In this document: positions 14,211-48,694 of the stretch, piece after piece
Layout of the letters: every line of letters begins with the position of its first letter
Numbering within the stretch: the first letter of the stretch is position 1
NCBI GenBank assembly: GCA_021204865.1
Contig: JAJPYQ010000046.1
Location: forward strand, 257 to 64,256
Source: Prevotellaceae bacterium
GTDB taxonomy: Bacteria > Bacteroidota > Bacteroidia > Bacteroidales > Bacteroidaceae
Reading direction: 5' to 3'
DNA: 64,000 nucleotides
Notes under the pieces: generated by a model
What the model was told of the DNA's origin: nothing
Database searches by the model: none
Seen by the model: only the letters and a program-made list of their open reading frames with translations
Translations under genes and position numbers: made by a program

Positions 14211-14285
14211 AACGATAATGTGTTTAATTTGGTTAGCCCATTGGATTATGTAGTTTGTTAGTTTGTGTTTGCTTGTTTTGTCTGT

Positions 14286-31039: not shown

Positions 31040-31109
31040 GCTCCAAGGCATTAGATAGCTGTTTATGACTTTGGCTTAGAGCAGGAAACCTTGCTGAAGA
31101 TAGCGCTGT

Positions 31110-33722: not shown

Positions 33723-33733
33723 AACAAAAGAAA

Positions 33734-33766
33734 AAGCCCCATAGGAATATTGCACCTATGGGGCTT
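33734..33766 (-). terminator. rho-independent terminator closing the 12-gene minus-strand cluster
   Basis: Perfect 12-bp stem AAGCCCCATAGG / CCTATGGGGCTT with a 9-nt loop. On the minus strand it is followed by TTTTCTTTTGTT. It sits 14 nt after the stop of the last cluster gene. Confidence 0.75.
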
Positions 33767-33779
33767 AGGTAATAATGTT

Positions 33780-35384
33780 TTAGTTCAAAGTTCTTGACTG
33801 TTTATGTGCTTTCTCGTTACGAGGAGTTTGCTTAGGAGTATCAAGCATTATCAAATTTTCAATATAATTTGACTGCTGGATATTCGAACTCTTTGCATTT
33901 GCTCTGCCGTTTTGACGGTAACAATTCCCATTGTTAAGGGGATTACGCCCTTTGAAGGCATTTGTGTTCAAACGGTCAGTGACTTTTGTATTAGGTGACA
34001 GGCTTGGTGCATACATCAAATCAGCATCTATAAATGATACACAGGGATAACCACTTTCCTCACCCCAAACTACGACACAGGTTGTATAGTCTGAAGAAAA
34101 GTAGTAATAGTATCCATATATATTGTCTAATTCGATGTATTTTGTTCCGACTTCAGCCAGCAAATCATCTATAGAAGTAGTGCTACCGTCGTAGTATACA
34201 TCCGTCTCAAACAAACCAGTAGTGGCAGAAGTGAAGTAGTAATCTATCTCGATCTCGTAGCCATTGCCATCATAGCCGAGAGCATAAGAGCCATCACTTG
34301 TGATTTCTGCACTCCCAGTCGAGCCATAGTACATATTGTAGCCACTCATAAACGTCTGAACGGCTGAAACTGTACCTCCCCATGTCGTGTATACATCAGG
34401 TATATAGGAAATAGTAGTGGTGTTACCGCCGCCAGTGTAGTGAGTAAGGTTGTCGAGCCAAGCGTCATATCCGCTCTTCTCACCGAAGTAGGTTGTTGCA
34501 GCTGTGTTGTCGCCATTGTAGCTCATTCCACCGTAGTATGTCTTGCCGTCTTCAAGCGCAGAGGTGCCCGCGTTGCTGTTGTAGTGGGTATACGTTGTTG
34601 TGCCTGCATTTTCGCTCTTCTGGAACACGAACTCCCAATCAATTGATGCATCGAGAAGATATCTTGTGTGTCTGATGGAGCTTTCGCTGCTCACTGTCAC
34701 TTTGTCACGGAGCATGAAGTATCCCGTGTTAGTGAGGTCGAGATTAAATTTCTCGTCCCTTGAGAGGCTTGGATCTAAGCTATACGAATCTGTTATGTCT
34801 ATAGTGCCGAAGCCGACGTATGGATATGACGACTGGTCGTAGTCTAAATATGTCAGTTCCACAAGTGAGCCAATAGCTTCTGGAGTCACGCTGATGGTGC
34901 TGTTGCTTGAGATGTTAGCCTCGGTGGTGCATACGCCAAGTACGTAGGGATAAGTCACTTGAGCGCCTTCCACTGATATTTTCAAAGTCTTAAGGCTAAG
35001 AGTGTCTGTATACTCCCAATAGTAGGGGAGATAGTCGTCTTCCTCGTCTACTGCTGTCTCTATCGTCACGAAGGTGTACTTTCCACCCTCCAGTTGAAAC
35101 TCTTGTTTAGCTACGTTCAGTGAATATTGGCATGTTGTCTGGCTGGTCACCAGTTGGTTGTCAGCGTCGTAGACGTAAGTCTTAACGCTTATGGCTGATG
35201 TCTGGTCTCTCACGAAGTCAAGCATATCGCTGACTAAGTCAAATGTTTCATACATACTCTGCGTGGTGACATTATAGGTCACAGTGCTTAGCGAGCCGAC
35301 AGTTTCTATCTCTATGTCATCGTTTGAGCAAGAGGTGACGAACAACGTTGTAAGCGCAATCGCGGCAAATATAATCTTTTTCAT
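33780..35384 (-). CDS. hypothetical lipoprotein (last gene of the cluster)
   Basis: MKKIIFAAIALTTLFVTSC lipobox. Thr/Tyr/Ser-rich beta-type sequence. No family recognised. Confidence 0.6.
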   Translation of the reverse strand: MKKIIFAAIALTTLFVTSCSNDDIEIETVGSLSTVTYNVTTQSMYETFDLVSDMLDFVRDQTSAISVKTYVYDADNQLVTSQTTCQYSLNVAKQEFQLEGGKYTFVTIETAVDEEDDYLPYYWEYTDTLSLKTLKISVEGAQVTYPYVLGVCTTEANISSNSTISVTPEAIGSLVELTYLDYDQSSYPYVGFGTIDITDSYSLDPSLSRDEKFNLDLTNTGYFMLRDKVTVSSESSIRHTRYLLDASIDWEFVFQKSENAGTTTYTHYNSNAGTSALEDGKTYYGGMSYNGDNTAATTYFGEKSGYDAWLDNLTHYTGGGNTTTISYIPDVYTTWGGTVSAVQTFMSGYNMYYGSTGSAEITSDGSYALGYDGNGYEIEIDYYFTSATTGLFETDVYYDGSTTSIDDLLAEVGTKYIELDNIYGYYYYFSSDYTTCVVVWGEESGYPCVSFIDADLMYAPSLSPNTKVTDRLNTNAFKGRNPLNNGNCYRQNGRANAKSSNIQQSNYIENLIMLDTPKQTPRNEKAHKQSRTLN

Positions 35385-35414
35385 AGTTATAGTTGTTTAA
35401 TGTTGTTTATCGTT

Positions 35415-36155
35415 TTAGAACTTGCACACGCTGAACATCCACGACAGGGATATCTCCAGAGAGCCCATCTTGCAGGGCATATTACCAGCCAACTTGCTTG
35501 TGCCGATGTTGTAGCGAGCGTTGATATCAAGCCCGGTGTTTGGAATAGTGTAGCCTAGACCCACGAGAGGGTGTATGTCCATAGGCTTCAGCTTACTGCC
35601 GTCTGTGTCAAGATTGTAAGTCACACTCGAATAATCTGGGCTTGGATCCTGAACGCTGAGACTCTTTGGGCTGCGGGAGAGCGCTGCTCCAAACGAAACT
35701 CCAGCCTCTATATAGAATGAGTTCATGCTGCTCATCTTGGCGCATGGATACACGTGAACGTAGATAGGCACTTCAAAGTAGCTGACCGAGAGGCTTGCCT
35801 TCTCCTTCCCTTTCTCGTCGGTACCCAAGGTCTTGACGCTGTTGTTCTTGTACTTAAGTTCCCAGCCAATGCCGAAAAGACCAGTGCCTCCAGCAGAGTT
35901 GCGGGTGGCTTTGCCCAGTCTCAATTTCATGGCAACGCCTGCTGAGTATCCAATACCCATAGCGTCGTAGAGGTCGCCCTCGTTGGGCTGTGTCATGCTC
36001 GAAAGAGTGAGACCTATCTTCGGTCCCATATAGAAGCCATTCCACTTCCGCTTGACTGGGATGGTTTCCTCTTCTCCGTCGTCAATTTGTGCGAACATTG
36101 GCGCCGCAGTGAGCAGGGCCAACAGCAAGATTGTAATTTTCTTCATACTCCTCAT
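35415..36155 (-). CDS. small outer-membrane beta-barrel protein (OmpA-barrel / porin-like)
   Basis: Signal peptide ...APMFAQ, alternating hydrophobic strands (GIGWELKY, VSFGAAL, GLGYTI), and a C-terminal aromatic residue ...SVCKF. Confidence 0.65.
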   Translation of the reverse strand: MRSMKKITILLLALLTAAPMFAQIDDGEEETIPVKRKWNGFYMGPKIGLTLSSMTQPNEGDLYDAMGIGYSAGVAMKLRLGKATRNSAGGTGLFGIGWELKYKNNSVKTLGTDEKGKEKASLSVSYFEVPIYVHVYPCAKMSSMNSFYIEAGVSFGAALSRSPKSLSVQDPSPDYSSVTYNLDTDGSKLKPMDIHPLVGLGYTIPNTGLDINARYNIGTSKLAGNMPCKMGSLEISLSWMFSVCKF

Positions 36156-36190
36156 TTAATTATTAGGATTAATAAATAGTAAAATTATTT

Positions 36191-37615
36191 TTAGTAGGGT
36201 ACACCATCATCTGGACAACGATCAGAAAATGTGTGGGTTTTGTCTATAACCTTGCCGCAGTACGAGCATGTCTTGTGTGCCCCGTTGTTTGGACAATAGT
36301 CGTCCCCTTTCTTTGTGCTGTCTATGAGTCTCTTGCAGATAGAACATCTCTTTTGCTGAGTTGGGGGTGGAGTCGAACCGCCACCAATTGGTTTGGGTTC
36401 TGTGAATGTATAGGTGACAGAACCCTCATAGAGCAGAAGGTCGTCGCAGCTAACACTTAGCTGGTAATCCATATTGCCAGCTTTGGCTGGTGTCACCGTG
36501 AAGGAATATTCATCTTTTCCTCCCGATTTTGTAGCTTTATACTCTGTGCCTTTGCCATCTTTTACCATCACAGTCATTGTGTTGTTTTTCCATACGTCAG
36601 GAACAGAAAGGGTGAACTTGCACGTCTGAGGTTTCTTGTCGCACGTAAGTTTTTGGCTTTCGGCGATCGCACTGAAACTGCCATTGTCCACATAGCGTAG
36701 TATGCCTTTGTGGTCGTTCTTCTCCACTACAGCCAAATCGTCTATGAACGATGTGGCATACGAAAGTTGGCAGGGAAGTATGATGTTGTCACCGTCAGCA
36801 TAGCCATATCTGCCGTCGTCGTCCTTGTTGGGAGACAGACCGACACTGCCTGTGGAGATTTGTTTTGTGAATGGAATCTCCTTGTTTTTTCCAGTGATGC
36901 ATGAAAAGCGCGAGAGATAGTCGAACGAACTCTTGTCGGGAACTTTAGCTTTAGCGCATTTTTCTTTCGTGTGAACGTCGTATGTGTAGGTGCGCCCGTA
37001 GCTGTCTACAATGTAGGCTTTCCCTTGGTAGACGCTTGTTATCACGGCTACGTCGGCAACTCTTGGCAGCTCAATGTACATCCTTGTGCCTTTTTTGTTG
37101 ATGAGCTGGTATTTGCCATTTGCTGCTCGAACAGCGGCATAGCCCTCCACGAAAGGCTTTATGAGGTTGTATTTATCGTCGAAGCCTAAGACTGCATAGC
37201 CCTTATCGTCGATATAGCCCACACGCCCTTGCTCATCGCGCACTGAAAGGAGACCATCAGAGAAGAAGTTCTGCCCTGTCAGTGTGTAGTATTTGCTGCC
37301 GAGGCTGTTATACACGCCGTCATCAGTCAGGTAGCCGTTTATTATTTCTCCCTTGTCATCGAAGGAAGTCAAGAGGGCTTTATGCTCATAGAAGCCTGTT
37401 ATATTGTTATTGATCAGTGGCGCAACCTCCTTGCCGCTTGCATCGATGAGGCCCAGCAGTTTGTTGCTTCTCACCTTGTAAAGGTTCTCTTTCACTCTTT
37501 CGATGCTCTGGTAGTCTGCGTCTGCATTGGGCTTCATTTGCCATACAACAGTCTGCCCCATAGCGCTCAGCCAGCACGAAGCTGTGGCTAAAACTATTAT
37601 AATCCTATTCTTCAT
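36191..37615 (-). CDS. WG-repeat (KWG-type) protein with two C-terminal CxxC...C zinc-ribbon-like motifs
   Basis: Signal peptide MKNRIIIVLATASCWLSAMGQ. Repeated units GLIDASGKEV, GYIDDKGYAVLGFDDKYNLIKPFVEGYAAV, YQLINKKG and YGYADGDNIILP. Tail CSICKRLI...YCPNNGAHKTCSYCGKVI...RCPDDG. A 4-nt ATGA overlap joins it to the upstream PP2C gene. Confidence 0.65.
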   Translation of the reverse strand: MKNRIIIVLATASCWLSAMGQTVVWQMKPNADADYQSIERVKENLYKVRSNKLLGLIDASGKEVAPLINNNITGFYEHKALLTSFDDKGEIINGYLTDDGVYNSLGSKYYTLTGQNFFSDGLLSVRDEQGRVGYIDDKGYAVLGFDDKYNLIKPFVEGYAAVRAANGKYQLINKKGTRMYIELPRVADVAVITSVYQGKAYIVDSYGRTYTYDVHTKEKCAKAKVPDKSSFDYLSRFSCITGKNKEIPFTKQISTGSVGLSPNKDDDGRYGYADGDNIILPCQLSYATSFIDDLAVVEKNDHKGILRYVDNGSFSAIAESQKLTCDKKPQTCKFTLSVPDVWKNNTMTVMVKDGKGTEYKATKSGGKDEYSFTVTPAKAGNMDYQLSVSCDDLLLYEGSVTYTFTEPKPIGGGSTPPPTQQKRCSICKRLIDSTKKGDDYCPNNGAHKTCSYCGKVIDKTHTFSDRCPDDGVPY

Positions 37616-39015
37616 CGTTTTGTCTGCTTAATTATTTTTTCGAGTTCTGCTAATCTTTTCAATTGTACATTTAAGTTGTACTGACACGTCCTCGTTGTGT
37701 GGAATTTGCTATGAATTTTGTACTTATCGACATACCATAGTAGACTGTCGTTTTGGACATCTGCATATATCGAGTCAAACTTCAGCTTTGCTGCCTCTAT
37801 ATCCTGAATAAGTGGGTGCAGACTGTCTGTAAGGGCTCTTGTATTCGTTTTGTAATTGTCTATAGCTTCCCTCGCTTCCTTTTCTTCGGTGCAATTGATA
37901 GCTATCGCCCCCTTGAAGGCTTGGCGTAGGTTCCCTATTAACTTCATAATGCTGTCGGTGACGCACAATGCTACAGGCTGTTCAATGGAGTCTTTTTTGA
38001 TCGTGTCCACGACTGCTATACTGTCCATTTTTACGGGGATTGCCGCATAGTTTGTCTTCTTCCGAGATCTTCCTTTTCCTCCTGGATAGCCAGTGTTTAT
38101 AGTATTATCTTCTGTCGTGTTCTTGTGGTTATAGAACTCTCTTATTTTCTCGCTCGACAACAAGATAATCACTATGGCTGCTAAAAGTATGGCGCAGCCA
38201 CCGAGTATGGCTATCATTCTGTTGCGGGCTGTGGTGTCCACCATCTCCGAGTCCACGTCGATGTCGAATATGGCCAACGTGTGGTTGTCGTGGTTTCCGC
38301 CCTTGGCAAAACCCACCTTGTCTATCTCCTCGGATATGTTAGACACAAGATTGCCAATGTCTGTATCGGTGCTGAGTCTGTCCAGCAAGTCTTTGTGGGG
38401 CATAATGCCCCATACACCGTCCGTGCAAAGGACAAAGCGGTCACCCTTCTTGTAAGGTATCTCGTCTATGTCTGGAACGTGGTTACTAACGTTGCCCAAT
38501 CCCCGTGTGATGATGTTCGACTGTGGTGAGACCCTCGCTTCTTCCTCCGTGAGTGCTTTGCTCCTCACGAGTTCTGCCACGAGAGAGTGGTCGGCACTCT
38601 TGTAGCGCACCTTCTTTCCCCTGAGGCAATAGCATCGGCTGTCACCTGCATGGGCTATCATTGCGGAGTGGCTGTTGATGAGGATTGCCACAAAAGTGGA
38701 GCCCATTCCGCTTAGTTGCGGCACATCCTTCACCTTGTTCTCCAAGGCTTCCTCGGCTTTTGCCACCGCCATCTTCAGCGCTCGTTCACGGGATGTCGTA
38801 GCGTAGCATTGGCAAAGGGCTGTGGCTATTTCACGCTTGACAATGTGTGAAGCGGTTTTTCCTCCCGGACCTCCGCCCATACCGTCGCAAATGATGAGAA
38901 GAAAGCCAAGGGGAGTGTCGATGAAACCGTAATCGTCTTGGTTCTCTTGACGTCCTCCCTGCATAGAGTTGGCGGCTCCATGCAGGGCTATTGTGTCAGA
39001 CTTGATGATATTCAT
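37612..39015 (-). CDS. membrane-anchored PP2C-family Ser/Thr phosphatase with an extracytoplasmic C-terminal domain of about 190 aa (PP2C-1)
   Basis: GGRQENQDDYGF...ICDGMGGGPGGKTAS...CTDGVWG motifs and a TM helix MIAILGGCAILLAAIVIILL. Start chosen at MNIIKSD (39015), which matches the length of the paralogue at 43238-44293. The alternative ATG at 39066 would overlap the upstream gene by 17 nt. Confidence 0.75.
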   Translation of the reverse strand: MNIIKSDTIALHGAANSMQGGRQENQDDYGFIDTPLGFLLIICDGMGGGPGGKTASHIVKREIATALCQCYATTSRERALKMAVAKAEEALENKVKDVPQLSGMGSTFVAILINSHSAMIAHAGDSRCYCLRGKKVRYKSADHSLVAELVRSKALTEEEARVSPQSNIITRGLGNVSNHVPDIDEIPYKKGDRFVLCTDGVWGIMPHKDLLDRLSTDTDIGNLVSNISEEIDKVGFAKGGNHDNHTLAIFDIDVDSEMVDTTARNRMIAILGGCAILLAAIVIILLSSEKIREFYNHKNTTEDNTINTGYPGGKGRSRKKTNYAAIPVKMDSIAVVDTIKKDSIEQPVALCVTDSIMKLIGNLRQAFKGAIAINCTEEKEAREAIDNYKTNTRALTDSLHPLIQDIEAAKLKFDSIYADVQNDSLLWYVDKYKIHSKFHTTRTCQYNLNVQLKRLAELEKIIKQTKR

Positions 39016-39049
39016 TGGGTAGGGATGTGCTTGTGAAGGCTGATGATGC

Positions 39050-39766
39050 TTATAAATAGACAGCAAGGAGGCCGATTCCTGAAATTATTGACAATGAAAC
39101 GCATACGCATACCAATACAACACCCACCTTGGTCCAAGTGGCTTGCACTTTCTCAAACTCGGCCACACTGCTCCATTGCTTATTGTTCCAAGCCCATTCG
39201 TTGCCTTGTAGGCCACATATAACGGAAAGGACCAGAGCAGCAATTGAGGAGATGATATTGACGAAGGGTATGCAAGCGCATACGTAAAGCACCACATAGA
39301 TGACAAAGATCCACCAGCACCCATTGCCCAGACTCCATATCCAATTCAGCAGAAAAGCTCCCCAGTTCCATTTATGCAGGTCGGGCATCTCAGCCTTGCT
39401 CTCAGAATTGCTTGTCACCTTTATGCCAAAGTTGTCTCCGGTGACGCTGTTGTTTCCTGCACCGCTGTTGTGTGCAGCGTTTCTTGTCGAACTGCTGTTG
39501 GCTTCGGGAAAGAACGCACAAATTTGATTCCAGCTTATCGGGTATTTGCCTGCCAGCATTATGATGTCTCCATACTTGATAGGTACGGCTCTTTGCTTCA
39601 CATGGACATTGTTTATCATCGTGCCGTTACTACTCGTGTCCTTATACATCAGCTGGTCGGCATCATAATATATTATGGCGTGTCGGTTGCTGGCATAGGC
39701 ACATCTTTGGTCGATATAGATGTCGCTGTCCGCTTGTCTCCCGATAGTGACTTCTCTTAGGTTCAT
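39050..39766 (-). CDS. FHA-domain protein with a DUF2628-like multi-TM C-terminus (FHA-2)
   Basis: N-terminal VTIGRQADSDIYIDQRCAYASNRHAIIYYD...SSNGTMINNVHV...GDIIMLAG (FHA signature G-R...S..H...N-G). C-terminal WNWGAFLLNWIWSLGNGCWWIFVIYVVLYV plus further hydrophobic helices. Confidence 0.7.
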   Translation of the reverse strand: MNLREVTIGRQADSDIYIDQRCAYASNRHAIIYYDADQLMYKDTSSNGTMINNVHVKQRAVPIKYGDIIMLAGKYPISWNQICAFFPEANSSSTRNAAHNSGAGNNSVTGDNFGIKVTSNSESKAEMPDLHKWNWGAFLLNWIWSLGNGCWWIFVIYVVLYVCACIPFVNIISSIAALVLSVICGLQGNEWAWNNKQWSSVAEFEKVQATWTKVGVVLVCVCVSLSIISGIGLLAVYL

Positions 39767-39787
39767 TCTTTTCAGAAGCTTTGTTTG

Positions 39788-41074
39788 TTATTTGACTATG
39801 AAGGGCATAGCCTTCTTCGTTATCTGATCATAGAGTGCAAACACGCCCTGGCCAGTGACAAAGTACTCAAGTCTTGTGGTGTTGTTGACGCTCGTCTCGG
39901 AAGAAGACAGGGCGAACTTCTGTATCTCGAAAATGTCCGCACTAAAGTAATATGCTGGTATCTTACGGTCAGCGTCCTTGTTCACCTTCACCAACATAAG
40001 GTTGTCACTCGACATGTGATTAGGGTTGCTGTATTCTACAATGATCTTGGTTGTGGTCGTGCCCTTAGGCACCAAAATCTTCCTGTTTATGCTGTCGAGT
40101 ATAAGATACGAACCTTCTTTTTTGACCCCCACAGAGTCCGCTGCCATACGGTTTATCAGCACTTCTCCTGGCTGCAGTAGAATGTCGTAGAGGGGCTTAT
40201 ATTCACTGTTGTTTTCGCGTATGTAGTCTATGATTTCGTCGAACTTAACAGTTTGCGTAGAGCCAGAAGGTTGCATTATCACAAGATAGTTGTTGTTGTC
40301 AGTGAAGTTCTTCTCCACTATGACACCGCGGAAGACTGCATTCTTGGTGTACACCACATCGGTCAGCGGACTTTGCTCGAAGATGGTTTGATTTGGATTG
40401 ATGGGCTTGTAGAAATACTTAACCACATCGTCAATGTTGAAAGTCTGCACCGTGCCGTCTTCCATATACAGGCTCAGAGTGTTGTACGACTCACCAGCGT
40501 ACTCGCCTTTTACTTCCTGTCCATTCTTGAGCTGGTAGATACGGTCAATGCCAGAGAGCGCTTCCTTTGGTCTGCGTTCACTCTTTATAACGTCCACGTC
40601 GCTCCAGTTGAACGAGTATGAGTTGGGCGTGAATTCCACATACTTTATAGTGTAGCCTCTCTCCAGCACTTTCACTTTCGACACGCTCTGGTGTCTGTCC
40701 TTGAAGTCGTTCTCAAACGAAGTCGCAGTTCCGCTCACCACTGTGTCTGAAGCTGTTTTGGGGAATGAAATCTCGTTGAGTGTCAGGGTGCGGTCGCTGC
40801 CAGTACCATTGTAAGCGTGGTTCTTTTCAGCCCATTCTTTCCACGTGTCGTCCAGCTCGCTTTCCTTGTACACCTGCTCAGTGATGGTAGCCCCCACACC
40901 GCTGACGCACACGATGGCGTTCTCGCTCTGAAACGTTATGTCTTCGTTACCGCCCTGCTTTTGTATAAAGCCGTTGAGCACTGTGCCGTTTTTCAGTTGT
41001 ACTCTCTGCACCACTTCGGCTTTCGTGTAGGTCAGAGAGGCTAACAGTGCCAGCAAAACAAATGTCTTCTTCAT
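39788..41074 (-). CDS. hypothetical secreted protein
   Basis: Signal peptide MKKTFVLLALLASLTYTKAEV. 428 aa, beta-rich. No family recognised. Confidence 0.55.
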   Translation of the reverse strand: MKKTFVLLALLASLTYTKAEVVQRVQLKNGTVLNGFIQKQGGNEDITFQSENAIVCVSGVGATITEQVYKESELDDTWKEWAEKNHAYNGTGSDRTLTLNEISFPKTASDTVVSGTATSFENDFKDRHQSVSKVKVLERGYTIKYVEFTPNSYSFNWSDVDVIKSERRPKEALSGIDRIYQLKNGQEVKGEYAGESYNTLSLYMEDGTVQTFNIDDVVKYFYKPINPNQTIFEQSPLTDVVYTKNAVFRGVIVEKNFTDNNNYLVIMQPSGSTQTVKFDEIIDYIRENNSEYKPLYDILLQPGEVLINRMAADSVGVKKEGSYLILDSINRKILVPKGTTTTKIIVEYSNPNHMSSDNLMLVKVNKDADRKIPAYYFSADIFEIQKFALSSSETSVNNTTRLEYFVTGQGVFALYDQITKKAMPFIVK

Positions 41075-41101
41075 ATCTTTTCTGAATTAAAAATTATCCT
41101 C

Positions 41102-42586
41102 TCACTTCTTGTGTGGGCTATCAATAAGCTCCTTTATATATTTTGCCTTGACACCTTGGTTGATGTTTTCTTTTGTCACGCCAGAATGATGAACACCTAT
41201 CAGCATTCCTTTGTCGTTGAACACTGGCGAACCGCTTGCCCCACCAGCAGTCACAGCATCATAGTTGAAGTCGAACTCACCGCTCTGTTGCGTGACTTTT
41301 CCCTCATGGCAGAATACTTGAATTCCCTTCTCGCCTTCCAAATCTTGCAAACTCATTCCATACGGGAAACCTACCGTGAACATCGTTTTCCCTACTTCAA
41401 TGGCATCTTCTGACACGTCCATCGAGTCCTTTATGTTTACGTATGAGCAATTCTTGTTGGGCAATGTCATCTTGTCGCTTTGGATGAGAGCCACATCCTT
41501 GTTTATGTCATCCCCAGCAGAAAGCACAGTGCAGTATGTTGCATTCTCTGGAGAAAAGAAACTGCCTTGAGGAACAAGCATTATACCGTCACTGACTCCA
41601 ATAATTTTGATCTGCGAAGTGTAAGCCGTGAGCCCTAATGATGGATATTGTTCAGCAATCCCGGCAAAATATCTACGAAATAGTTGCTCAAATTGGGCTA
41701 TCTCTTCTGCCTTTGTCGGCTCCAACCAGGGCTTCACGACATGGAGATTGGTGATAATCTTGGCATCTTCTGAAATAAAAAAGCCCGTTCCGGTATACAC
41801 AGTCGAACCTGACATTCCTGGGGTGACTGGTACAATTTCGCCGTTCTTATCAAACACAAACTTTGTGTAGAGCTTGTCACTCACATCTACCCCAAAATCG
41901 TTTACCTCTAAGTGATAACTGCCAACAAGCATAACTACCGAAGAACTATACCTGTCGTTGATCATAGCGGCTGTCCATGTCTTATGGCTTAATAGTTTGT
42001 ATATCCCAAAGCCAATGCCCACGAGCAGTATTGCGCAAGCAGCTACACCCAAGATAGCCTTCCATGAATCGTTAGCCCATGGCAAGCGGCTTAGATCAAC
42101 TCTCACGCCACCGCAAATCACCACGCTTTTGCGCTTCAGAACATAGGGAGTGTTTGGCATTATTTTCTGCCCGTCAACAGTGGTGCCGTTCTGGCTGTGG
42201 TCGAAGATATACATCTTGCCGTTCTTGCCCTGTTTCACCGTGGCGTGGTAGCGGCTGACTGTGGCTCCGGATATCTGAAAATCGTTGTTGAAGTGGCTGC
42301 CGATACCGAATAGAGCTTTGTATGCCGAGTTGTCTTCGGGTGTGGGTACCTTGCTCCAGTCCAGTTGAGTGTCAGCGAACTGTACGGCATCGAATCTGTT
42401 GATTTTCACTGTGGAGCCTGGCTTCATCTGCTGGTTTCCGATGTAGGTTCCGTTAAGGCTATTCTTGTCTTCCAGCATTATGTCGCCATTGTCCATCAGT
42501 GTAAGCTCCGCATGTACAGAGCTTACTCTCTGACTATTCAACACGATATCGCATTTTGCGCTGCGGCCAATCTTAAGTAATCGCAT
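41102..42586 (-). CDS. FHA-FHA-TM-trypsin-like serine protease fusion
   Basis: FHA 1: LKIGRSAKCDIVLNSQRVSSVHAELTL...SLNGTYIGN. FHA 2: ISGATVSRYHATVKQ...SQNGTTVDGQKI. TM helix ILGVAACAILLVGIGFGIY. Protease triad candidates are ITNLHVV, KDVALIQ and GGASGSPVF. Confidence 0.75.
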   Translation of the reverse strand: MRLLKIGRSAKCDIVLNSQRVSSVHAELTLMDNGDIMLEDKNSLNGTYIGNQQMKPGSTVKINRFDAVQFADTQLDWSKVPTPEDNSAYKALFGIGSHFNNDFQISGATVSRYHATVKQGKNGKMYIFDHSQNGTTVDGQKIMPNTPYVLKRKSVVICGGVRVDLSRLPWANDSWKAILGVAACAILLVGIGFGIYKLLSHKTWTAAMINDRYSSSVVMLVGSYHLEVNDFGVDVSDKLYTKFVFDKNGEIVPVTPGMSGSTVYTGTGFFISEDAKIITNLHVVKPWLEPTKAEEIAQFEQLFRRYFAGIAEQYPSLGLTAYTSQIKIIGVSDGIMLVPQGSFFSPENATYCTVLSAGDDINKDVALIQSDKMTLPNKNCSYVNIKDSMDVSEDAIEVGKTMFTVGFPYGMSLQDLEGEKGIQVFCHEGKVTQQSGEFDFNYDAVTAGGASGSPVFNDKGMLIGVHHSGVTKENINQGVKAKYIKELIDSPHKK

Positions 42587-42604
42587 ATCTAAATTCTTTT
42601 TAAA

Positions 42605-43225
42605 TCATTTATACTGGTTCCTCCCACTCTTCTTGTCGGAGTCTTTCTTGTCGCCGTCCTCTTTCTTGTCGTCAGTCTTCTTGTCATCGGTCTTTTCCTT
42701 GTCATCACCGCCTTTTTTAGAGGTTTTTTGCTGATTTCCTTTCTTAGCTTTGGAGGTGTTTGAGGGTTGTCCGCCCTTCTTTTTGTCGGCTTCTTCGCTC
42801 TTCTTGTCGCTCTCCTCTTGATCTACTGCTTTTGTGGTGTCCGTCACCACTTCATTTTCTGAGGGTTTGGAACCGCCTCGGTGCGACTTTATTGCGCTAT
42901 AGCCGAAGAAGCCACCAACTACCAAGATGATAAGTACTATCAGGATGGTCACGTAGCGCAGTGCCGTTTTGCTTTTCGGTACCATATTCCAGTCGAGGCG
43001 TGCTACGTGAGCAAAAGAAATGTTGTCTTTTCTTGTCACTGGTACGGGCACATTCTGCGAGATGCGTATGCCATTCACGTAGGTACCGTTTTGGCTTATA
43101 TCTGTGATTGTCATCTTGCCAGAAGACGCCACTGTTAGTGTGGCATGCCTGCGGCTCACCACGTCGGTGCTGTCGTTTATGAGAATGTCGCACCCTACTT
43201 CTCTTCCAATACTGTAAACTTTCAT
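42605..43225 (-). CDS. FHA-domain protein with one TM helix and a Lys/Asp/Glu-rich tail (FHA-3)
   Basis: YSIGREVGCDILINDSTDVVSRRHATLTV...SQNGTYVNG. TM helix YVTILIVLIILVVGGFFGY. Tail ...KKGGDDKEKTDDKKTDDKKEDGDKKDSDKK. Confidence 0.7.
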   Translation of the reverse strand: MKVYSIGREVGCDILINDSTDVVSRRHATLTVASSGKMTITDISQNGTYVNGIRISQNVPVPVTRKDNISFAHVARLDWNMVPKSKTALRYVTILIVLIILVVGGFFGYSAIKSHRGGSKPSENEVVTDTTKAVDQEESDKKSEEADKKKGGQPSNTSKAKKGNQQKTSKKGGDDKEKTDDKKTDDKKEDGDKKDSDKKSGRNQYK

Positions 43226-43237
43226 ATAGTTGAGTTG

Positions 43238-44293
43238 TTATTTGTTCTTGGTCTTGTCGGGGTTCGTTGTAGTTTCTCCGCTCTCCGTCGTGGTCTTAGA
43301 GATGACTGTTTGGCTGGCAGAAGTCTCAGTTGACCCCGTCCCGGCAACGGATTCTTGCTGTTCGGTGGTTACACTGTCTGTTGTCACGGCATTGATTTCA
43401 CTCTTGTGACCACTGCAACCTTGCACAATGTTTATGACAATGCTCATCACCAGTAGCAGTGCCAGAACCATTATTATCAGTTTCGATTGTCTTGTCATTT
43501 TGGGCTTAATTATTGAGTCTTTAGTTGTTTCCACAATTGCTATGGTGAGGTTGTCGTGCACCATCCCTGAGCTTCTGCCTATGTTGTCAATGCGGGTGGC
43601 TATGTCGTCGGTTAACACACCCAGCTTCGGGCGTTTGTCGCTCATCATCTTCACGAGTTCCGCCTCAGGCATTGCCCCGTGGATACCGTCAGTGCATAGC
43701 ACAAAGCGGTCTCCCCTCTGGTAAGGAACTCGATGTATTTCCACTTCTACATCTGGTCTTATTCCCAGTGCGCGGGTTATTACATTGGATTGTGCCGACA
43801 GGCGTGCTTGCTCTTCCGTTATCACTCCCTGTGCCACCATCTCGAAAACCAGTGAGTGGTCGAACGTGCGGAACACCTTGCGTCTATATCTTAACTGATA
43901 CACCCTGCTGTCGCCCACGTGAGCCACATAGGCGCAATTTTCGGCTATCAACAGCACTGTTGCGGTGGAGCCCATGCCTCTAAGCGAAGGTGTACGGTTG
44001 CCTTCCTCAATGATGGCCATATTGGCTTTTCTCACTGCCTTTATGATAGTGTTTGATATGTCTTCTCCTTGTTCGCAACCGCTTACGCCTTCCAGTATCT
44101 CGTTCACGGCTATCGACGATGCGGTCTTTCCTCCAGGACCTCCTCCCATTCCGTCGCATACGGTCACCAGATAGCCCCATTTTGTTTGTCGCCACCCGAA
44201 GGAGTCTTGGTTTTCACGTCTGCCTCCTATGCGCGATTCAGCGAAGGCGCGCACTAAGCCGTTGTTGTCGTTATATATTTTCTGTAGTTCCAT
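43238..44293 (-). CDS. membrane-anchored PP2C-family Ser/Thr phosphatase (PP2C-2)
   Basis: GGRRENQDSFGW...VCDGMGGGPGGKTAS...CTDGIHG. TM helix LIIMVLALLLVMSIVINIV. Ser/Thr-rich tail. Confidence 0.8.
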   Translation of the reverse strand: MELQKIYNDNNGLVRAFAESRIGGRRENQDSFGWRQTKWGYLVTVCDGMGGGPGGKTASSIAVNEILEGVSGCEQGEDISNTIIKAVRKANMAIIEEGNRTPSLRGMGSTATVLLIAENCAYVAHVGDSRVYQLRYRRKVFRTFDHSLVFEMVAQGVITEEQARLSAQSNVITRALGIRPDVEVEIHRVPYQRGDRFVLCTDGIHGAMPEAELVKMMSDKRPKLGVLTDDIATRIDNIGRSSGMVHDNLTIAIVETTKDSIIKPKMTRQSKLIIMVLALLLVMSIVINIVQGCSGHKSEINAVTTDSVTTEQQESVAGTGSTETSASQTVISKTTTESGETTTNPDKTKNK

Positions 44294-44321
44294 AATAGCC
44301 TATTGGGATTCACTATGCCTG

Positions 44322-45338
44322 CTACATTGTGCTTGATAATATGATGACGAACGCCAATACTACAATCACTGCGATTAAGACGGCCGTCAGAACAATATGA
44401 TTTTGCATCCATGCCGAGAACTTATCACCAGTTTTTAGCTCTGGCTTTATGGCCTCTTGTATTGCGTTTCTCATTTCCTCAGCGCTTTGAAAGCGTTTAG
44501 ACTGGTCTTTTTCAGTCGCTTTCCAGATCACTTTCATCAGTTTCTTTGGTATGTCCTTGTGGCTGGGCAGATTGTCCGAAAGCTGTTTTTTCAGGGTTTC
44601 TGCCTGCGAAGGGGCATCCATCGGATTTTCTTCTGTGAGAAGCTCGTAGAATGTTATGCCAAGCGCATACAAGTCTGTGGTGGCGTTTATGGTGCCGGCG
44701 CCGTCTTCGCCTCTCTTTATTTGCTCCGGAGCGGAGTATTGTGGAGTGCCGATGAAACCGAATTGAGAGTATTGGTTGCCTCCGTTCATTCTTGATATGC
44801 CAAGATCCATCAGTCGAACGTTAGAGTTGTTCTCCACCATGATATTCGAAGGCTTAATGTCTCTGTGTATCACTCCACGTGAATGTATGTACTCCAGTGC
44901 GTCCAGTACAGAGCACATAGCCCTGCATACCATATCAACTTTGCGCTGGGGTGCAAGCTTCTTCACATATTCGTCAAGGTCTTCTCCTTTCACAAAGTTG
45001 CTGAGCAGGAAAATAGGCCCGTAGTCGGGGGCGTACTCGCAATAGCCTATCATTTCCACAAGGTTTGGGTGGCGGAACGCAAGCGAAGCCTCCTGTCTGG
45101 CTCTTTCCCTTATCATTTTGTTGCTGGCATAGGAGTCTTTCACCCGCTTTACTGCTATCTCTAAACCATTCGAACACCTGTAGCCGAGATACACATCACC
45201 CATTGCACCGCTGCCCAAGGGCTTGTCATTAGGGTTGTAGCAGTACCACTCGTTCATCACGTGCAGATATAAGTAGGGATCCTTCGGGTAGTTCTTCCCC
45301 CAAGTCACGCTGGGCATATTTTGATGAGCTTGTGGCAT
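44322..45338 (-). CDS. Hanks-type Ser/Thr protein kinase, C-terminally tail-anchored (STK-2)
   Basis: G-loop LGSGAMGDVY, IAVKRV, catalytic loop HRDIKPSNIMV, DLG in place of DFG, SAPEQ, and a terminal TM helix IVLTAVLIAVIVVLAFVIIL. Confidence 0.85.
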   Translation of the reverse strand: MPQAHQNMPSVTWGKNYPKDPYLYLHVMNEWYCYNPNDKPLGSGAMGDVYLGYRCSNGLEIAVKRVKDSYASNKMIRERARQEASLAFRHPNLVEMIGYCEYAPDYGPIFLLSNFVKGEDLDEYVKKLAPQRKVDMVCRAMCSVLDALEYIHSRGVIHRDIKPSNIMVENNSNVRLMDLGISRMNGGNQYSQFGFIGTPQYSAPEQIKRGEDGAGTINATTDLYALGITFYELLTEENPMDAPSQAETLKKQLSDNLPSHKDIPKKLMKVIWKATEKDQSKRFQSAEEMRNAIQEAIKPELKTGDKFSAWMQNHIVLTAVLIAVIVVLAFVIILSSTM

Positions 45339-46859
45339 TTACATCTCTTTTAGCTGTTCCAACTTATTCAGATAATCTTTTATCATGCCCACATACTTTG
45401 CGTCATTGGCCTCTTCGGCGTACTCGAGAGCTTGACGATAGTATTTTTCGGCCTGTACCTCATCTCTTTCTTTCACTGCATCTGTTCGAGCACTTGCACC
45501 GAAGAAGTCACAAGCGTATTCGTAGAGGGCGTGATAGTTGGTACTGTCTTGTTCGATGGCTTTCTTTAGCAGCATGTGTGCTGCCACGTTGTTGATTTGG
45601 ACATCCAGTTCTTCTCTGAATGTAAGTATCGAGTCTGGGCAAGCCTCGCGGTCGCGTTCGGCGTTGCTCTGGAACATCATGAGGGCGCGCAGCGTCGTTG
45701 CCCTTGAGTCTCCTGTATCCGACAAGTATTTCAGCATATTCAATGCCTCTTTACCTTCCTCTCCTCCTTTGTGCATTTGTGTGATGACTTCGTCGTAGGT
45801 TATTTTCTGGGGAGTAGGAACAGGACGCCGAAGCAGGACAACAATGGCTATGACAGCGCATACAGCGATGCCCCCAACAATGAAGCTGTATGAAGTCCTC
45901 CACTGGTAGTTCGCTTTAATTCCTTTCTCTGCTTGTCCTATAGCCGAGAGAAAAGAAGCTGCGCTGTCGAAGCGCTCTTTGCGCGCCTTCTTTGTGGCCT
46001 TGTCTATAATCTGCCTCAGCGCGCCGTATTTCACTTGTCTCAGAGGCAGATGCTTGTGTAACTGGGCTTGCAGGATCTCACTCCTGTCGCCGTTGAAAGG
46101 TGTGTGGCCGGTGATTAGCTCGAAAAGCATTATCCCCACGGCATACAAATCAGTTCTGCCGTCTTGCTCGTTTATGGCACCAACTACAAGTTCTGGAGCG
46201 GCGTATTTAGCTTTACCCACAAACTGGCCTGCCTGCGTGAGCTGCTTGTCGTGGCTTGTCATGGTGTTAACCTTCTTGGCTATACCGAAGTCGATAAGCT
46301 TTATGCGCCTGTCGCTTGTCACCATTATGTTCGAGGGGTCGATATCACGGTGAATATAGCCGTTGGCATGCATCGTTATAAGTCCGTTCAGCACGCTTTT
46401 CACTATTCTTATGGCGAACTTGTCTGGGTGACTCTTGTAGAGGTTGTACAGCTCTTCAGCGAAATCCACTTTGTTGCCATACTGGTCTGTCACATAGCCT
46501 GCCAACAATTTGTCGAGCGGCACTCCTATGAGCAGTTCGCTGACGACGTGGTAGTGGTGTGTGGGCATGCCAAGCTCGTCTGTGCTTACTTGATCAATGA
46601 AGCCCAGCATCTCAATGAGATTCTGGTGGGTAAAGTGGATGTTTGCCTCTCGCTTAGCCTTTTCTATGGCGTATGGAGGCAGATCGCTATACATGAACTT
46701 GATGGCCACATCTTTGCTGGTCTTGGCTTTCTCGTCAATGCATTTTCCCCTGAAGACCTTGCCCATTCCGCCTTCTCCCAGTGGACGTTCACTTGCATCG
46801 AGTTCATAGTATATGCCCCGGAGCTTCTCCTCTTTACCGTATATCTTGTATTTCGCCAT
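45339..46859 (-). CDS. Hanks-type Ser/Thr protein kinase with a TM helix and a TPR/Sel1-like extracytoplasmic domain (STK-1); non-canonical catalytic loop
   Basis: LGEGGMGKVF, VAIKF, HRDIDPSNIMV (Asp where Lys is expected; GAC codon at 46340-46338), DFGIAK, AAPEL, and TM helix FIVGGIAVCAVIAIVVLL. The C-terminal helical repeats end ...AEKYYRQALEYAEEANDAKY. Its stop directly abuts the STK-2 start. Confidence 0.85.
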   Translation of the reverse strand: MAKYKIYGKEEKLRGIYYELDASERPLGEGGMGKVFRGKCIDEKAKTSKDVAIKFMYSDLPPYAIEKAKREANIHFTHQNLIEMLGFIDQVSTDELGMPTHHYHVVSELLIGVPLDKLLAGYVTDQYGNKVDFAEELYNLYKSHPDKFAIRIVKSVLNGLITMHANGYIHRDIDPSNIMVTSDRRIKLIDFGIAKKVNTMTSHDKQLTQAGQFVGKAKYAAPELVVGAINEQDGRTDLYAVGIMLFELITGHTPFNGDRSEILQAQLHKHLPLRQVKYGALRQIIDKATKKARKERFDSAASFLSAIGQAEKGIKANYQWRTSYSFIVGGIAVCAVIAIVVLLRRPVPTPQKITYDEVITQMHKGGEEGKEALNMLKYLSDTGDSRATTLRALMMFQSNAERDREACPDSILTFREELDVQINNVAAHMLLKKAIEQDSTNYHALYEYACDFFGASARTDAVKERDEVQAEKYYRQALEYAEEANDAKYVGMIKDYLNKLEQLKEM

Positions 46860-46942
46860 ATCTTGTCTCTGCTTTAGTCTTTTGCCAGAAACATTTTTAG
46901 ATAATCATTGTCTGATGGCTCGCACCTTGCCTCAAGTGCTTA

Positions 46943-47728
46943 TCACATAGGTATGGTACCGCCGCTTTTTGTTGGCGTTTGTCCGTCCATCCCTATTGTT
47001 CCGTCCGACGACCCGCCTTTTCTGTTAGGTGTCCATCCGGCTGTGTTGCCAGTGAACGGATCGAAGCCCCCAGGGCGGGTTGACCTATCTGAAAACGATG
47101 GAGGCATGTTGTCTTCTATCTCTTCCTCGGGCTCTGGCTCGTTGGTTGGTATGAACTCTTTGCTTGTTGACAGCCCGCTTGCCGCTGCGTCAATCAGCAG
47201 GAACAAGAGCTTGTAGTTGTTGCCTATAGTTATGACATCTCCGTTGTGGCACTCTTCTGCCTCGAAGTCTATCATTTCGCCGTTCAGCATTGTGCCGTTG
47301 GTGGACTCGGTGTCTTTAATGGCGGCAATGATACCGTTTTTGCCTTGTCGAGTGATGATGACGGCATGGTTGTTGGACACTGTGCCTTCTGCCAACACTA
47401 TATCAGAGCTTCCTGACTGCCCGATGGTGTTCTTCCCCATCTGGATGGGCCAATATTCACCCACTGGAGTGCGGGAGATGGAGTAGAGAAAGCCAACGAT
47501 AGGCTTACCTGACCGTATGGGTCTTTGTTGTCTTGTCTGGGAAGGGGCTGCCTCTGCAACATTGCCGGATGGAGTGTATGGCGCTTCGCCCATACCTGGC
47601 ACAACGGTGCCACGTGCGGCTGAGCTGGTGCCTCGTGAGTAGAAGTTCTGACCTACGCCTCTTTGCGCTCTTCCGTTATTGTTATCCTCTGGCTCTAAGC
47701 CCTGGACAACAGTTTTCTTTTGTGACAT
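46943..47728 (-). CDS. soluble FHA-domain protein (FHA-4), first gene of the cluster
   Basis: The central region is FHA-like: PIVGFLYSISRTPVGEYWPIQMGKNTIGQSGSSDIVLAEGTVSNNHAVIITRQ...STNGTMLNGEMI...GDVITIGN. The flanks are Gly/Pro/Ser-rich with no TM helix. Confidence 0.7.
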   Translation of the reverse strand: MSQKKTVVQGLEPEDNNNGRAQRGVGQNFYSRGTSSAARGTVVPGMGEAPYTPSGNVAEAAPSQTRQQRPIRSGKPIVGFLYSISRTPVGEYWPIQMGKNTIGQSGSSDIVLAEGTVSNNHAVIITRQGKNGIIAAIKDTESTNGTMLNGEMIDFEAEECHNGDVITIGNNYKLLFLLIDAAASGLSTSKEFIPTNEPEPEEEIEDNMPPSFSDRSTRPGGFDPFTGNTAGWTPNRKGGSSDGTIGMDGQTPTKSGGTIPM

Positions 47729-48447
47729 AGTAGTTATATTTATGGTTAGCTGTTTGCATCAAAGTGTTCTGTGTAATGCGATATGAAAACTTAATACGGT
47801 ATACTGATTGTAGTGTACAGATTAAGTTTGTGCAAAGGGTCAATCCCAGCGCACTTGAGAAGCGCTTTCCCCAAGCCTGAAGGTTGCCCGAACAAATCGT
47901 GTCTTCAGTGGCACTTTGCCTGGCTTTTGTGATCTGTATCACATTCATATCTGTATGACTAAACATCATTCTTAGTTGAACTCAGTTTTAGGCATAAAAA
48001 AGCGTGAGAGTGACTTGTTGTCCATCCCACGAACCGAGGCTCTAGCAATCGCCCATTATTGTTGAACAGACAACGTCAGAGCCCACGCCGATATGAATTA
48101 AATTCTACCTTAAGAGTCCTGAATAAAAAACAACCTTGCATCATATAAGGACACAACCTGCCTTTATTAACAGGACTCCTCGGGCGAAACATCACACCCG
48201 GAACATCTACCGTTGCGAAGTTCGAGACAACAACTACCGTAATTTGCTAGATTCCGGTTCGTCAAGAACACAGCGCCACGTAAACGCCTTCAATATGTCG
48301 TGGACTGTAGTCCCGCCCAAAACCCGCTTCACATACATTGTCACCTGACGGCAACGCTGTTATGTTTAGCTCGGCGTAGGTCACCAACCCTCATCATAAA
48401 AGAACTCGTCAATTGGCGATTCGGGTTATGGTGTTACAGTCCGAATG

Positions 48448-48455
48448 CAAAGTTA
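48448..48455 (-). promoter_or_regulatory. -7 box-like TAACTTTG on the minus strand inside the ORF-free region
   Basis: The reverse complement of caaagtta is TAACTTTG. It lies about 720 nt upstream of the first cluster gene, so it would give a very long leader or a separate RNA. Confidence 0.3.
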
Positions 48456-48551
48456 TATGCTTTTTTCCATTGTGCAAGCAAAATCGGAAAATATTTTTTA
48501 TTTCATTCGTCCCCCTTCTTTAAAACAACTATACGCATATTGACTATAGTG

Positions 48552-48559
48552 CAAAGGTA
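48552..48559 (-). promoter_or_regulatory. -7 box-like TACCTTTG on the minus strand inside the ORF-free region
   Basis: The reverse complement of caaaggta is TACCTTTG. No ORF of 60 aa or more follows it on the minus strand. Confidence 0.3.
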
Positions 48560-48668
48560 GATATTGGGCTTAAAGCGTCGTCTTCAGTTCAGGCGGCATT
48601 TATATTTAGCTATGATATATGGTGTCTCTTTGCCTTGTGCAAAAGACATAAGATTAGCGTTATTTGCG

Positions 48669-48676
48669 TACCTTTG
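48669..48676 (+). promoter_or_regulatory. -7 box TACCTTTG for the dehydrogenase gene
   Basis: Exact match 19 nt upstream of the ATG at 48695. Confidence 0.5.
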
Positions 48677-48694
48677 CGGTAGAAAGATTGAGCT

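Follow-up and report, generated by a model that had tools for sequence, protein, structure and literature searches.

The 64,000-nucleotide stretch of contig JAJPYQ010000046.1 (assembly GCA_021204865.1, a Prevotellaceae bacterium) analysed here, called the window in what follows, carries a block of 12 consecutive minus-strand open reading frames (ORFs) that runs from position 47728 down to 33780 and is numbered g1 to g12 in the direction of transcription. These genes encode FHA-domain proteins, Hanks-type Ser/Thr kinases, PP2C phosphatases, a membrane-anchored protease and several exported proteins. A first-pass annotation, made from the sequence alone, had presented them as a self-contained unit closed by a terminator; its gene count, coordinates and spacing are all borne out by the ORF list and the translations. 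Intergenic gaps range from 0 to 83 nt: g2 and g3 adjoin at 45339/45338 with a gap of 0, g9 and g10 share a 4-nt ATGA overlap at 37612-37615, and the other gaps measure 12-83 nt. For g9, an independent gene call on the same contig points to the ATG at 39015 as the more likely start, which gives a protein of 467 amino acids (aa) beginning 34 nt past g8. The best reading of the locus is one conserved 13-gene operon, in which a further protease gene, g13, is the last gene and a structured leader RNA lies ahead of g1. All window features given below with coordinates lie on the minus strand.

Signalling, exported and surface proteins of the block

Profile searches with Pfam and NCBIfam upheld every FHA, Pkinase and PP2C assignment, and the five FHA domains, two kinases and two phosphatases all score above the curated Pfam cut-offs. 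Hydropathy predicts a single transmembrane helix for each of g2-g6 and for g9, a multi-pass g8 and a g1 without any, and N-terminal signal sequences are present on g7, g10, g11 and g12, in agreement with the earlier count of seven membrane-tethered signalling proteins, a soluble g1 and four exported products. Motifs were checked by aligning orthologues taken from six related loci, and the catalytic motifs are kept throughout this set, with the exceptions of a Lys to Asp change in the catalytic loop of g2 and of the canonical Arg missing from the FHA domain of g1 and the second FHA domain of g6.

In g6 (41102-42586), two FHA domains, a transmembrane helix and a periplasmic S1 serine protease are joined in a single polypeptide (Pfam FHA twice, and Trypsin_2). 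The His/Asp/Ser triad is kept in all orthologues aligned, and the nearest solved relatives of the protease are the V8/glutamyl endopeptidases and the Spl proteases, not HtrA. More than 120 full-length homologues with at least 50% identity were found, all with the same FHA-FHA-transmembrane-protease order and named at most "FHA domain-containing protein". The canonical Gly-Arg, Ser-x-x-His and Asn-Gly motifs are retained in the first FHA domain of g6 and in those of g5 and g8, and the orthologue alignment places Gly-Ser or Gly-Thr at the Gly-Arg site of the second g6 domain.

The other readers differ in how they are anchored. The product of g5 (42605-43225; FHA 59.1 bits) continues through a transmembrane helix into a low-complexity, Lys/Asp-rich periplasmic tail, and g8 (39050-39766; FHA 52.5 bits) joins its FHA domain to a multi-pass membrane domain. 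The latter had been called DUF2628-like; the multi-pass topology stands, and the Pfam DUF2628 match falls just under the cut-off (22.6 vs 23 bits). Outside its FHA domain the soluble g1 protein (46943-47728; 261 aa; Pfam FHA 49.7 bits) has four conserved motifs with Thr, in the N- and C-terminal parts (KTV, GTVVPGM, GTVGMDG and GGTIPM), which are candidate phospho-acceptor sites. In Prevotella-type copies of g1, Gly-Gln replaces the canonical Gly-Arg, the Arg being retained in the Phocaeicola g1. As a separate observation, the predicted periplasmic tails of g5 in two related loci carry Cys-rich repeats of the form CxxC[KG]K.I...C..KGKH (L004 9261-9977; L006 7072-7770), and the exported g10 ends in similar zinc-ribbon-like motifs, in a place where zinc ribbons are unusual.

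The kinase g2 (45339-46859; Pkinase 124.8 bits) has a transmembrane helix and a helical periplasmic domain of ~160 aa. Its kinase and membrane helix are as first described; the label "TPR/Sel1-like" for its ectodomain was overstated, the matches being sub-threshold only (E ~0.03). The catalytic loop (residues ~170-177) reads HRDIDPSN, with Asp in place of the Lys conserved in Hanks kinases, and this HRD-I-Asp-P-x-N form is found in nearly all g2-type orthologues, VAIK, DFG and APE being retained. It also occurs in an extra third kinase of the g2 type, which has a short coiled-coil-like ectodomain and lies between g9 and g10 in three loci (L004 15132-16577, L005 10328-11803, L006 12506-13960); the g2 position itself is empty in L006. 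The tail-anchored g3 (44322-45338; Pkinase 155.6 bits; transmembrane helix at residues 315-333) has a canonical core in the orthologue alignment, with VAIK, an HRDIKPSN loop and a conserved DLG. Both phosphatases are membrane proteins with their PP2C metal-binding motifs present in the sequence: g4 (43238-44293; PP2C_2 67.6 bits) ends in a Ser/Thr-rich tail and scores 186.9 bits against an Stp1-like model, under the equivalog cut-off, and g9 (37612-39015; Pfam PP2C) has a periplasmic domain of ~180 aa for which no Pfam match was obtained even at E<=1. In L010, the closest relative (90% identity), the g9 orthologue is called in two pieces of 51 and 386 aa (13594-14963), possible reasons being a frameshift, a pseudogene or an error of assembly.

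Among the exported products, g7 (39788-41074) is a 428-aa all-beta protein of no known family. Its AlphaFold2 model (pLDDT 85) shows tandem small beta-barrels followed by a C-terminal immunoglobulin-like domain, with no Protein Data Bank (PDB) match at E<=1e-3, and its 394 homologues are all unnamed and carry no Pfam domain. A WG-repeat protein is encoded by g10 (36191-37615; WG_beta_rep 48.6 bits), with an immunoglobulin-like region (weak Big_13 match) and a Cys-rich, zinc-ribbon-like C-terminal tail whose profile matches lie just under the cut-off; no sequence relative of it was found in the PDB, and its orthologue in L008 is a BACON and WG protein. The product of g11 (35415-36155; OMP_b-brl_2 59.1 bits) is a small outer-membrane beta-barrel.

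The last of the twelve, g12 (33780-35384), encodes a surface lipoprotein in which the lipobox Cys is followed by acidic SNDDIEIE. The N-terminal ~300 residues of its AlphaFold2 model (pLDDT 79) match the type V pilin superfamily in Foldseek, including the Mfa2 anchor, the Mfa3 tip, DUF1812 and Bacteroides "putative adhesins" (probability 1.0, E 6.6e-11 to 1e-5, TM-scores 0.43-0.50; 3gf8, 5nfi, 5nf4, 3r4r); an additional domain at the C-terminus and a disordered tail complete the model. On this structural model g12 is predicted to adopt a type V pilin (FimA/Mfa) fold, which would place a surface-structure partner inside the block. Type V pilins are surface lipoproteins that require proteolytic maturation, and the proteases encoded beside g12 are notable for this reason.

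Between g12 and g13 lies a hairpin (33734-33766) with a perfect 12-bp stem and a T-run, seen in the sequence; its 9-nt loop caused it to be missed by a consensus terminator scan, and it was confirmed by eye. The hairpin is as first reported, and what does not stand is that it closes the unit, given that g13 starts directly after it. The ATG of g13 (33722) lies 12 nt past the T-run, and therefore any g13 transcript must traverse the hairpin, which is likely a partial terminator or a processing or stability element and not the end of the unit. The product of g13 (31110-33722; 870 aa) is a secreted M6 (immune inhibitor A-like) metalloprotease, with a Peptidase_M6 match and 187.6 bits against TIGR03296 (cut-off 110.8). 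A C-terminal domain of the type IX secretion system, suspected by eye in its last ~35 residues, has no Pfam or NCBIfam match. Because an M6 gene occupies the last position in this window and in L002, L003, L004 and L010, and a Peptidase_C10 zymogen with a Spi-type prodomain holds the same position in L008 (18536-20014), a predicted secreted protease of varying family is the conserved last member of the operon wherever the locus reaches that far.

Conservation and genomic context

The block is conserved as a unit in at least nine other loci. Window proteins were mapped onto loci of Prevotellamassilia, Prevotella, other Prevotellaceae, Bacteroidaceae and Bacteroidales metagenome-assembled genomes (MAGs), and the gene order was found to be the same in the mapped loci, with which three Pfam-annotated metagenome or MAG neighbourhoods (L008-L010) agree. 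A contig scan with a single-sequence query gave five loci, and an alignment-based query would give a better taxonomic survey. Phocaeicola massiliensis (L007) has an 8-gene version composed of g1-g6, the WG protein and then a g7-like protein. The core comprises g1, a g2-type and a g3-type kinase, g4, g5, g6, g7, the WG protein and the outer-membrane barrel; the variable parts are g8 (absent in L002, L006 and L009), g9, the third kinase and the lipoproteins. The L008-type arrangement is the commonest and most abundant variant. The block is described in no paper of the literature searched and is named by no profile library.

These comparisons bear directly on whether the genes form a unit at all. 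The strong hairpin ahead of g13 and the variation of distal gene content (g8-g13) between loci would fit the fortuitous adjacency of several unrelated small operons on the same strand. Against this stand the tight spacing with its 4-nt overlap and the order of 8 to 13 genes, which is kept at 30-70% protein identity in different contexts; a whole gene order kept in independent genomes is therefore more than chance, and synteny leaves the adjacency explanation close to refuted.

Flanking genes vary by lineage and are housekeeping genes in this window, whose flanks contain no mobile-element, integrase or transfer genes; no tRNA or Rfam feature marking an island edge was found in the window either. 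The block has a guanine plus cytosine (GC) content of 47.5% vs 57-59% in the window flanks; over ~30000-48000 the values are 0.46-0.49 vs 0.57-0.62 in the outer parts of the window. Most related loci likewise show a cluster with less GC than the DNA around it, the gap being small or mixed in L002 and L007. Phage carriage was not detected in INPHARED or IMG/VR at the sensitivity used. A plasmid search returned one Phocaeicola record and one partial match (28% of the query) to an FHA region in a cyanobacterial plasmid. The Phocaeicola record is L007 (OY726067.1, P. massiliensis "plasmid: 93", 140 kb). Despite its plasmid label it has the look of a piece of chromosome: it carries both the 8-gene cluster and an RND efflux pump, relaxase and replicon typing are lacking, and the record is scored non-mobilizable.

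The leader RNA and the UpxY-type operon family

Upstream of the block, ~970 nt without a long ORF separate g1 from a divergent dehydrogenase gene, and this region contains a leader RNA of ~400 nt, located by profile (47991-48387), that ends in a hairpin and U-run (…CACGCTTTTTT). About 335 nt of the region are 77% identical at the DNA level to L008 3748-4081, and the coding DNA aligns in patches at 65-72%. Folding gave a minimum free energy z-score of -6.7 vs shuffles. No Rfam model reached its gathering score across the window, and none matched at E<=1 over 47600-48800. At least 120 gut-metagenome contigs contain an exact 31-mer from the leader core; besides the window, copies of the leader lie in L008 (3683-4087), L010 (4200-4596) and L011-L130.

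The alignment of 61 non-redundant leader copies yields a consensus of five helices with extensive covariation: 97.7% of cells are paired vs 34-42% when the partners are slid, 282 cells show double changes vs 13-37 in the slid controls, and none of 500 shuffles reaches the observed values. The compensatory changes cluster in three short helix segments, with up to four Watson-Crick pair types each, and since these variable segments lie outside the 31-mer used for collection, selection by the 31-mer is not their cause. They could be specificity determinants. Covarying helices of the leader include alignment columns 272-276/623-627 and 313-317/597-601. The 3' hairpin with its U-run is conserved as well (90.5% paired, modest covariation) and shares nucleotides with the long-range helices, an arrangement that would permit a terminator/antiterminator switch, as we infer for this leader. 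The structured leader RNA is the most novel single element of the locus and is previously undescribed.

A candidate promoter was read from the sequence ~60 nt upstream of the leader (48448-48482), with TTTG at 48479-48482 and TAACTTTG at 48448-48455, the latter matching the TAnnTTTG -7 motif of Bacteroides promoters. The spacing of 23 nt between TTTG and TAACTTTG is slightly long; similar TAnnTTTG boxes are found upstream of other leader copies in the alignment. Inverted repeats flanking the promoter, which would make it invertible, were sought and none was convincing.

The leader is tied to specialised NusG proteins by gene position. Of the 94 copies whose downstream sequence is long enough, 71 have a NusG-like gene that begins no more than 400 nt from the first position of the conserved 31-nt leader core. 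In L008, a UpxY-family gene stands between the leader and g1 (136.5 bits against the curated model NF033644, cut-off 100). In this window, L010, L004 and L006 no UpxY gene intervenes and g1 follows the leader directly; the leader is diverged in the last two, where its 3' domain alone was found directly upstream of g1. Leader signature motifs were not found upstream of g1 in L002, L007 and L009, and tblastn detected no NusG remnant in the 970-bp upstream region of the window. The conserved leader RNA and the UpxY paralogue in L008 would place the block, on the best reading of its gene context, among operons under the control of processive antitermination. The earlier view of a self-contained block with no partner machinery does not survive these results: a leader RNA precedes it, accompanied in L008 by a UpxY-family NusG paralogue, and g12, with its predicted pilin fold, lies inside it.

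The leader heads dozens of different accessory operons, usually just ahead of a UpxY paralogue, and the genes downstream of leader and UpxY mostly differ from this cluster. Examples of such operons, none of them a capsule operon, are L084, L101, L058, L018, L054, L065, L024 and L075; a Pfam scan of examples identified zinc-ribbon-FHA, FHA-transmembrane-Trypsin_2 and PP2C-transmembrane proteins, kinases, LytTR, a secreted caspase and tubulin-like proteins. Kinase or PP2C genes are present in 9 of the 36 leader loci that have at least 6 kb of downstream sequence. Since FHA, kinase, PP2C and peptidase parts recur behind the same leader, the block of the window belongs to a larger set of accessory operons built from them. 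L054 is an unrelated leader-headed operon that encodes an FHA-transmembrane-Trypsin_2 protein (a g6 paralogue) together with kinases and a PP2C-transmembrane protein. No comparative evidence speaks more strongly for a central role of the fusion in the working of the module than this finding of FHA-transmembrane-protease proteins alongside kinases and PP2C in two operon types. Two side observations concern the same family: some leader-headed operons carry tubulin-like GGTG proteins with very large partners, and the UpxY of L084 is 95% identical to that of L008, yet a wholly different operon stands behind it.

An accessory operon of this kind invites comparison with conflict systems. Under such an explanation the module would act against phages or competitors, for example through phospho-triggered proteolytic remodelling or shedding of surface receptors or through abortive infection. 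Its low GC relative to the flanks and its different chromosomal positions by lineage are compatible with this, as are the many paralogous leader/UpxY operons, the swaps of peptidase among trypsin, caspase, M6 and C10, the domain-level PADLOC matches to kinase, PP2C and protease models, and a resemblance to peptidase-rich conflict systems (PMC7159879). A known anti-phage defence system was rejected by PADLOC at the system level, however, the matches being to generic domains only and absent for 6 of 10 proteins. The block encodes no nuclease, NTPase, vWA or TIR-type effector, has no mobile-element genes nearby, is absent from the phage and IMG/VR collections, and has core proteins that are 50-70% identical and not hypervariable. 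We consider a role in conflict or defence unlikely; together with the outside-in sensor described below, it is nevertheless one of the main rivals of the reading preferred here.

A possible trans-envelope module and its relation to known systems

The predicted topology, with kinases, phosphatases and FHA readers in the cytoplasm and a protease and ectodomains across the inner membrane, has a trans-envelope arrangement as its natural reading, as first proposed. Our tentative interpretation, in which confidence falls a little short of even, is that the locus is an AT-rich, antitermination-controlled accessory operon of gut Prevotellaceae and Bacteroidaceae encoding a trans-envelope phospho-threonine module that gates periplasmic and surface proteolysis. 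The domain content, motif integrity, topology, block conservation, leader structure and UpxY link documented here are the observations on which it builds; the phosphorylation wiring, protease substrates, signal direction and physiological role that we infer from them are set out below in the conditional, with surface remodelling or maturation as the favoured role.

Transcription would start at the promoter ~700 nt upstream of g1 and pass through the structured leader RNA, which would take part in a UpxY (specialised NusG) antitermination circuit enabling RNA polymerase to read ~17 kb to g13. The receptor-like kinase g2, with its periplasmic helical domain, and the tail-anchored canonical kinase g3 would write phospho-threonine marks on partners near the membrane and on g1, a soluble protein of GarA/OdhI type, and the membrane PP2C phosphatases g4 and g9 would erase them. 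The inner-membrane FHA readers g5, g6 and g8 would be recruited to these marks, g1 serving as a soluble reader. Since the g6 reader is fused to a periplasmic V8-like protease, cytoplasmic phosphorylation would control where and when periplasmic proteolysis happens. Likely clients of g6 would be the co-encoded exported proteins g7, g10, g11 and g12, and the terminal secreted protease (M6 or C10) would provide a second proteolytic arm at the surface.

Several results weigh against this proposal. Judged from its catalytic loop, g2 may be a pseudokinase or use an atypical mechanism, and the FHA domain of g1 and the second FHA domain of g6 are without the phosphate-binding Arg in most orthologues. 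The presence of g8 and g9 and the position of the g2-type kinases vary between loci, and the exact wiring is not fixed. There is no UpxY gene beside the leader in the window, where antitermination would need a factor encoded elsewhere. The hairpin after g12 could be a true transcription terminator, in which case g13 would have its own promoter within g12. Finally, the pilin-fold call comes from a predicted model with moderate TM-scores (0.43-0.50), and the block contains one pilin-like gene.

The meaning of the locus lies mainly in two of its elements. The FHA-FHA-transmembrane-protease fusion suggests a direct coupling of cytoplasmic phosphorylation to periplasmic proteolysis, and we know of no demonstration of such a coupling in bacteria. 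Known modes of specialised NusG recruitment are a DNA ops hairpin and a small LoaP RNA hairpin, and if the leader is indeed a recruitment or specificity element, it would extend these modes. In the human gut few bacteria outnumber Prevotella and Segatella, whose signalling and surface biology is largely unknown, and the leader may offer a handle with which silent accessory operons could be found and switched on in these hard-to-study organisms. A bolder formulation, which we regard as doubtful, is that the locus represents an unrecognised class in which cytoplasmic Ser/Thr phosphorylation, read by membrane FHA proteins, exerts direct control over a periplasmic protease and over a pilin-like/protease module at the surface, in a family of systems of gut Prevotella switched on through a new structured leader that recruits or licenses UpxY-type NusG paralogues; the covarying helices could then be address codes for cognate factors.

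Among characterised systems, the threonine phosphorylation pathway of Pseudomonas aeruginosa is one in which an outer-membrane lipoprotein and a periplasmic protein feed envelope information to a kinase (PMC13584744). The block resembles this TagQRST-PpkA/TagE-PppA/TagG-Fha1/TagH pathway in having a membrane Hanks kinase with a periplasmic domain, a PP2C, an FHA reader, an outer-membrane lipoprotein and a periplasmic protein. It differs in its two kinases, two phosphatases and FHA-fused periplasmic protease, in its five, mostly membrane-tethered FHA domains vs one, and in the absence of type VI secretion system (T6SS) genes from the loci. No T6SS family was found among called genes within 10 kb on either side in L001, L008, L009 and L010 or in the window flanks, and the related loci embed the block in neither a T6SS nor a division cluster, in line with the first-pass annotation. 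The TagH model (TIGR03354) gives the FHA proteins of the block 24-48 bits (best 47.5, cut-off 120.25). No NCBIfam equivalog reaches its cut-off for the kinases, phosphatases or FHA proteins of the block.

As a rival explanation, the block could be an outside-in sensor of the envelope or surface that works like this pathway, minus the T6SS. The outer-membrane barrel, the surface lipoproteins and the periplasmic g7 would detect an external cue or envelope damage and signal to the ectodomains of g2 and g9, the kinases would act on cytoplasmic targets through g1, as with GarA/OdhI and Fha1, and the g6 protease would only tune or reset the system. Such a sensor is favoured by the co-encoded outer-membrane lipoprotein, periplasmic protein and receptor kinase, by the sizeable periplasmic domains on g2 and g9, and by the conserved Thr motifs and FHA domain of g1, with its weak similarity to OdhI and FhaB models. 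Yet the block encodes no transcription factor or obvious cytoplasmic effector, the g1 FHA domain lacks the key Arg in most orthologues, and all but one of the five FHA domains are tethered to the membrane, which argues for local assembly and not for a diffusible output. We consider a sensor of this kind rather unlikely, and prefer the module that gates proteolysis.

The actinobacterial FhaA-FhaB(FipA)-PstP-RodA-PbpA-PknA-PknB cluster shares with the block two adjacent membrane Hanks kinases, a membrane PP2C, and FHA and FHA-transmembrane (FhaB-like) proteins. This common parts list, the weak similarity to FhaB/FipA and Stk1/Stp1 models, and an FtsW/RodA-family gene adjoining the block in L008 could suggest a housekeeping regulator of the cell wall or division of the PknA/PknB-PstP-FhaA-FhaB type. 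However, that FtsW/RodA gene, the only division-type gene seen, lies on the opposite strand in the L008 flank and in no other locus, and the block contains no PASTA domain, RodA or penicillin-binding protein gene. The PknB_PASTA_kin model scores 149-195 bits (cut-off 450) over the kinase domain only, with no PASTA match, and the FhaB model 33-53 bits (cut-off 125). In contrast to the actinobacterial cluster, the block is AT-rich and variably located, has a UpxY-type leader, all features of an accessory operon, and encodes exported, outer-membrane and surface proteins together with proteases. A housekeeping role in division is thus highly improbable.

With GarA and OdhI, g1 shares a small, soluble form with Thr-containing tails around a single FHA domain. 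It differs in the Gln that takes the place of the phosphate-binding Arg in most orthologues and in having no metabolic-enzyme context, and the OdhI model gives it 26 bits (cut-off 200). The comparison with type V pili (FimA/Mfa) rests on the lipoprotein g12, with its predicted two-domain fold, standing beside secreted proteases. Unlike those pili, the block has a single pilin-like gene, no set of stalk, anchor and tip, and M6, C10 and S1 proteases instead of gingipains; at the sequence level g12 matches no Pfam pilin family.

Peptidase-rich conflict systems likewise combine trypsin- or caspase-like peptidases with FHA, kinase and signalling domains in diversifying operons (Kaur et al., 2020; PMC7159879). 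The block departs from them in having no vWA-MoxR, STAND or GTPase core, in its envelope location and in peptidases that keep the catalytic triad; nor did Pfam find in any product the vWA domain of TerY-P or vWA-kinase-PP2C triads. Hanks kinase, PP2C and FHA modules in general are known, and the block encodes these domains together with their motifs intact, apart from the Lys of g2 and the Arg of g1 and of the second g6 FHA domain; its particular architecture, its surface and protease partners and its transcriptional control are undescribed in the libraries and papers searched.

The closest parallel for the transcriptional control is found in Bacteroides, whose capsule operons need a leader for UpxY action, UpxY being recruited at short ops-like pause sites (PMC11685472). 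A covarying leader of ~400 nt is not described in that paper, and the structured RNA reported here differs accordingly from a 12-nt ops-like pause site with a small hairpin. Unlike the capsule operons, the block also has no glycosyltransferase, flippase or UpxZ-like genes, and the UpxY gene is missing in the window. What the L008 locus has in common with the Bacteroides UpxY/ops-leader system, and also with RfaH, LoaP and the Bacillus EAR RNA, is the arrangement itself: a leader and, behind it, a long, AT-rich, surface-related operon that opens with a UpxY paralogue.

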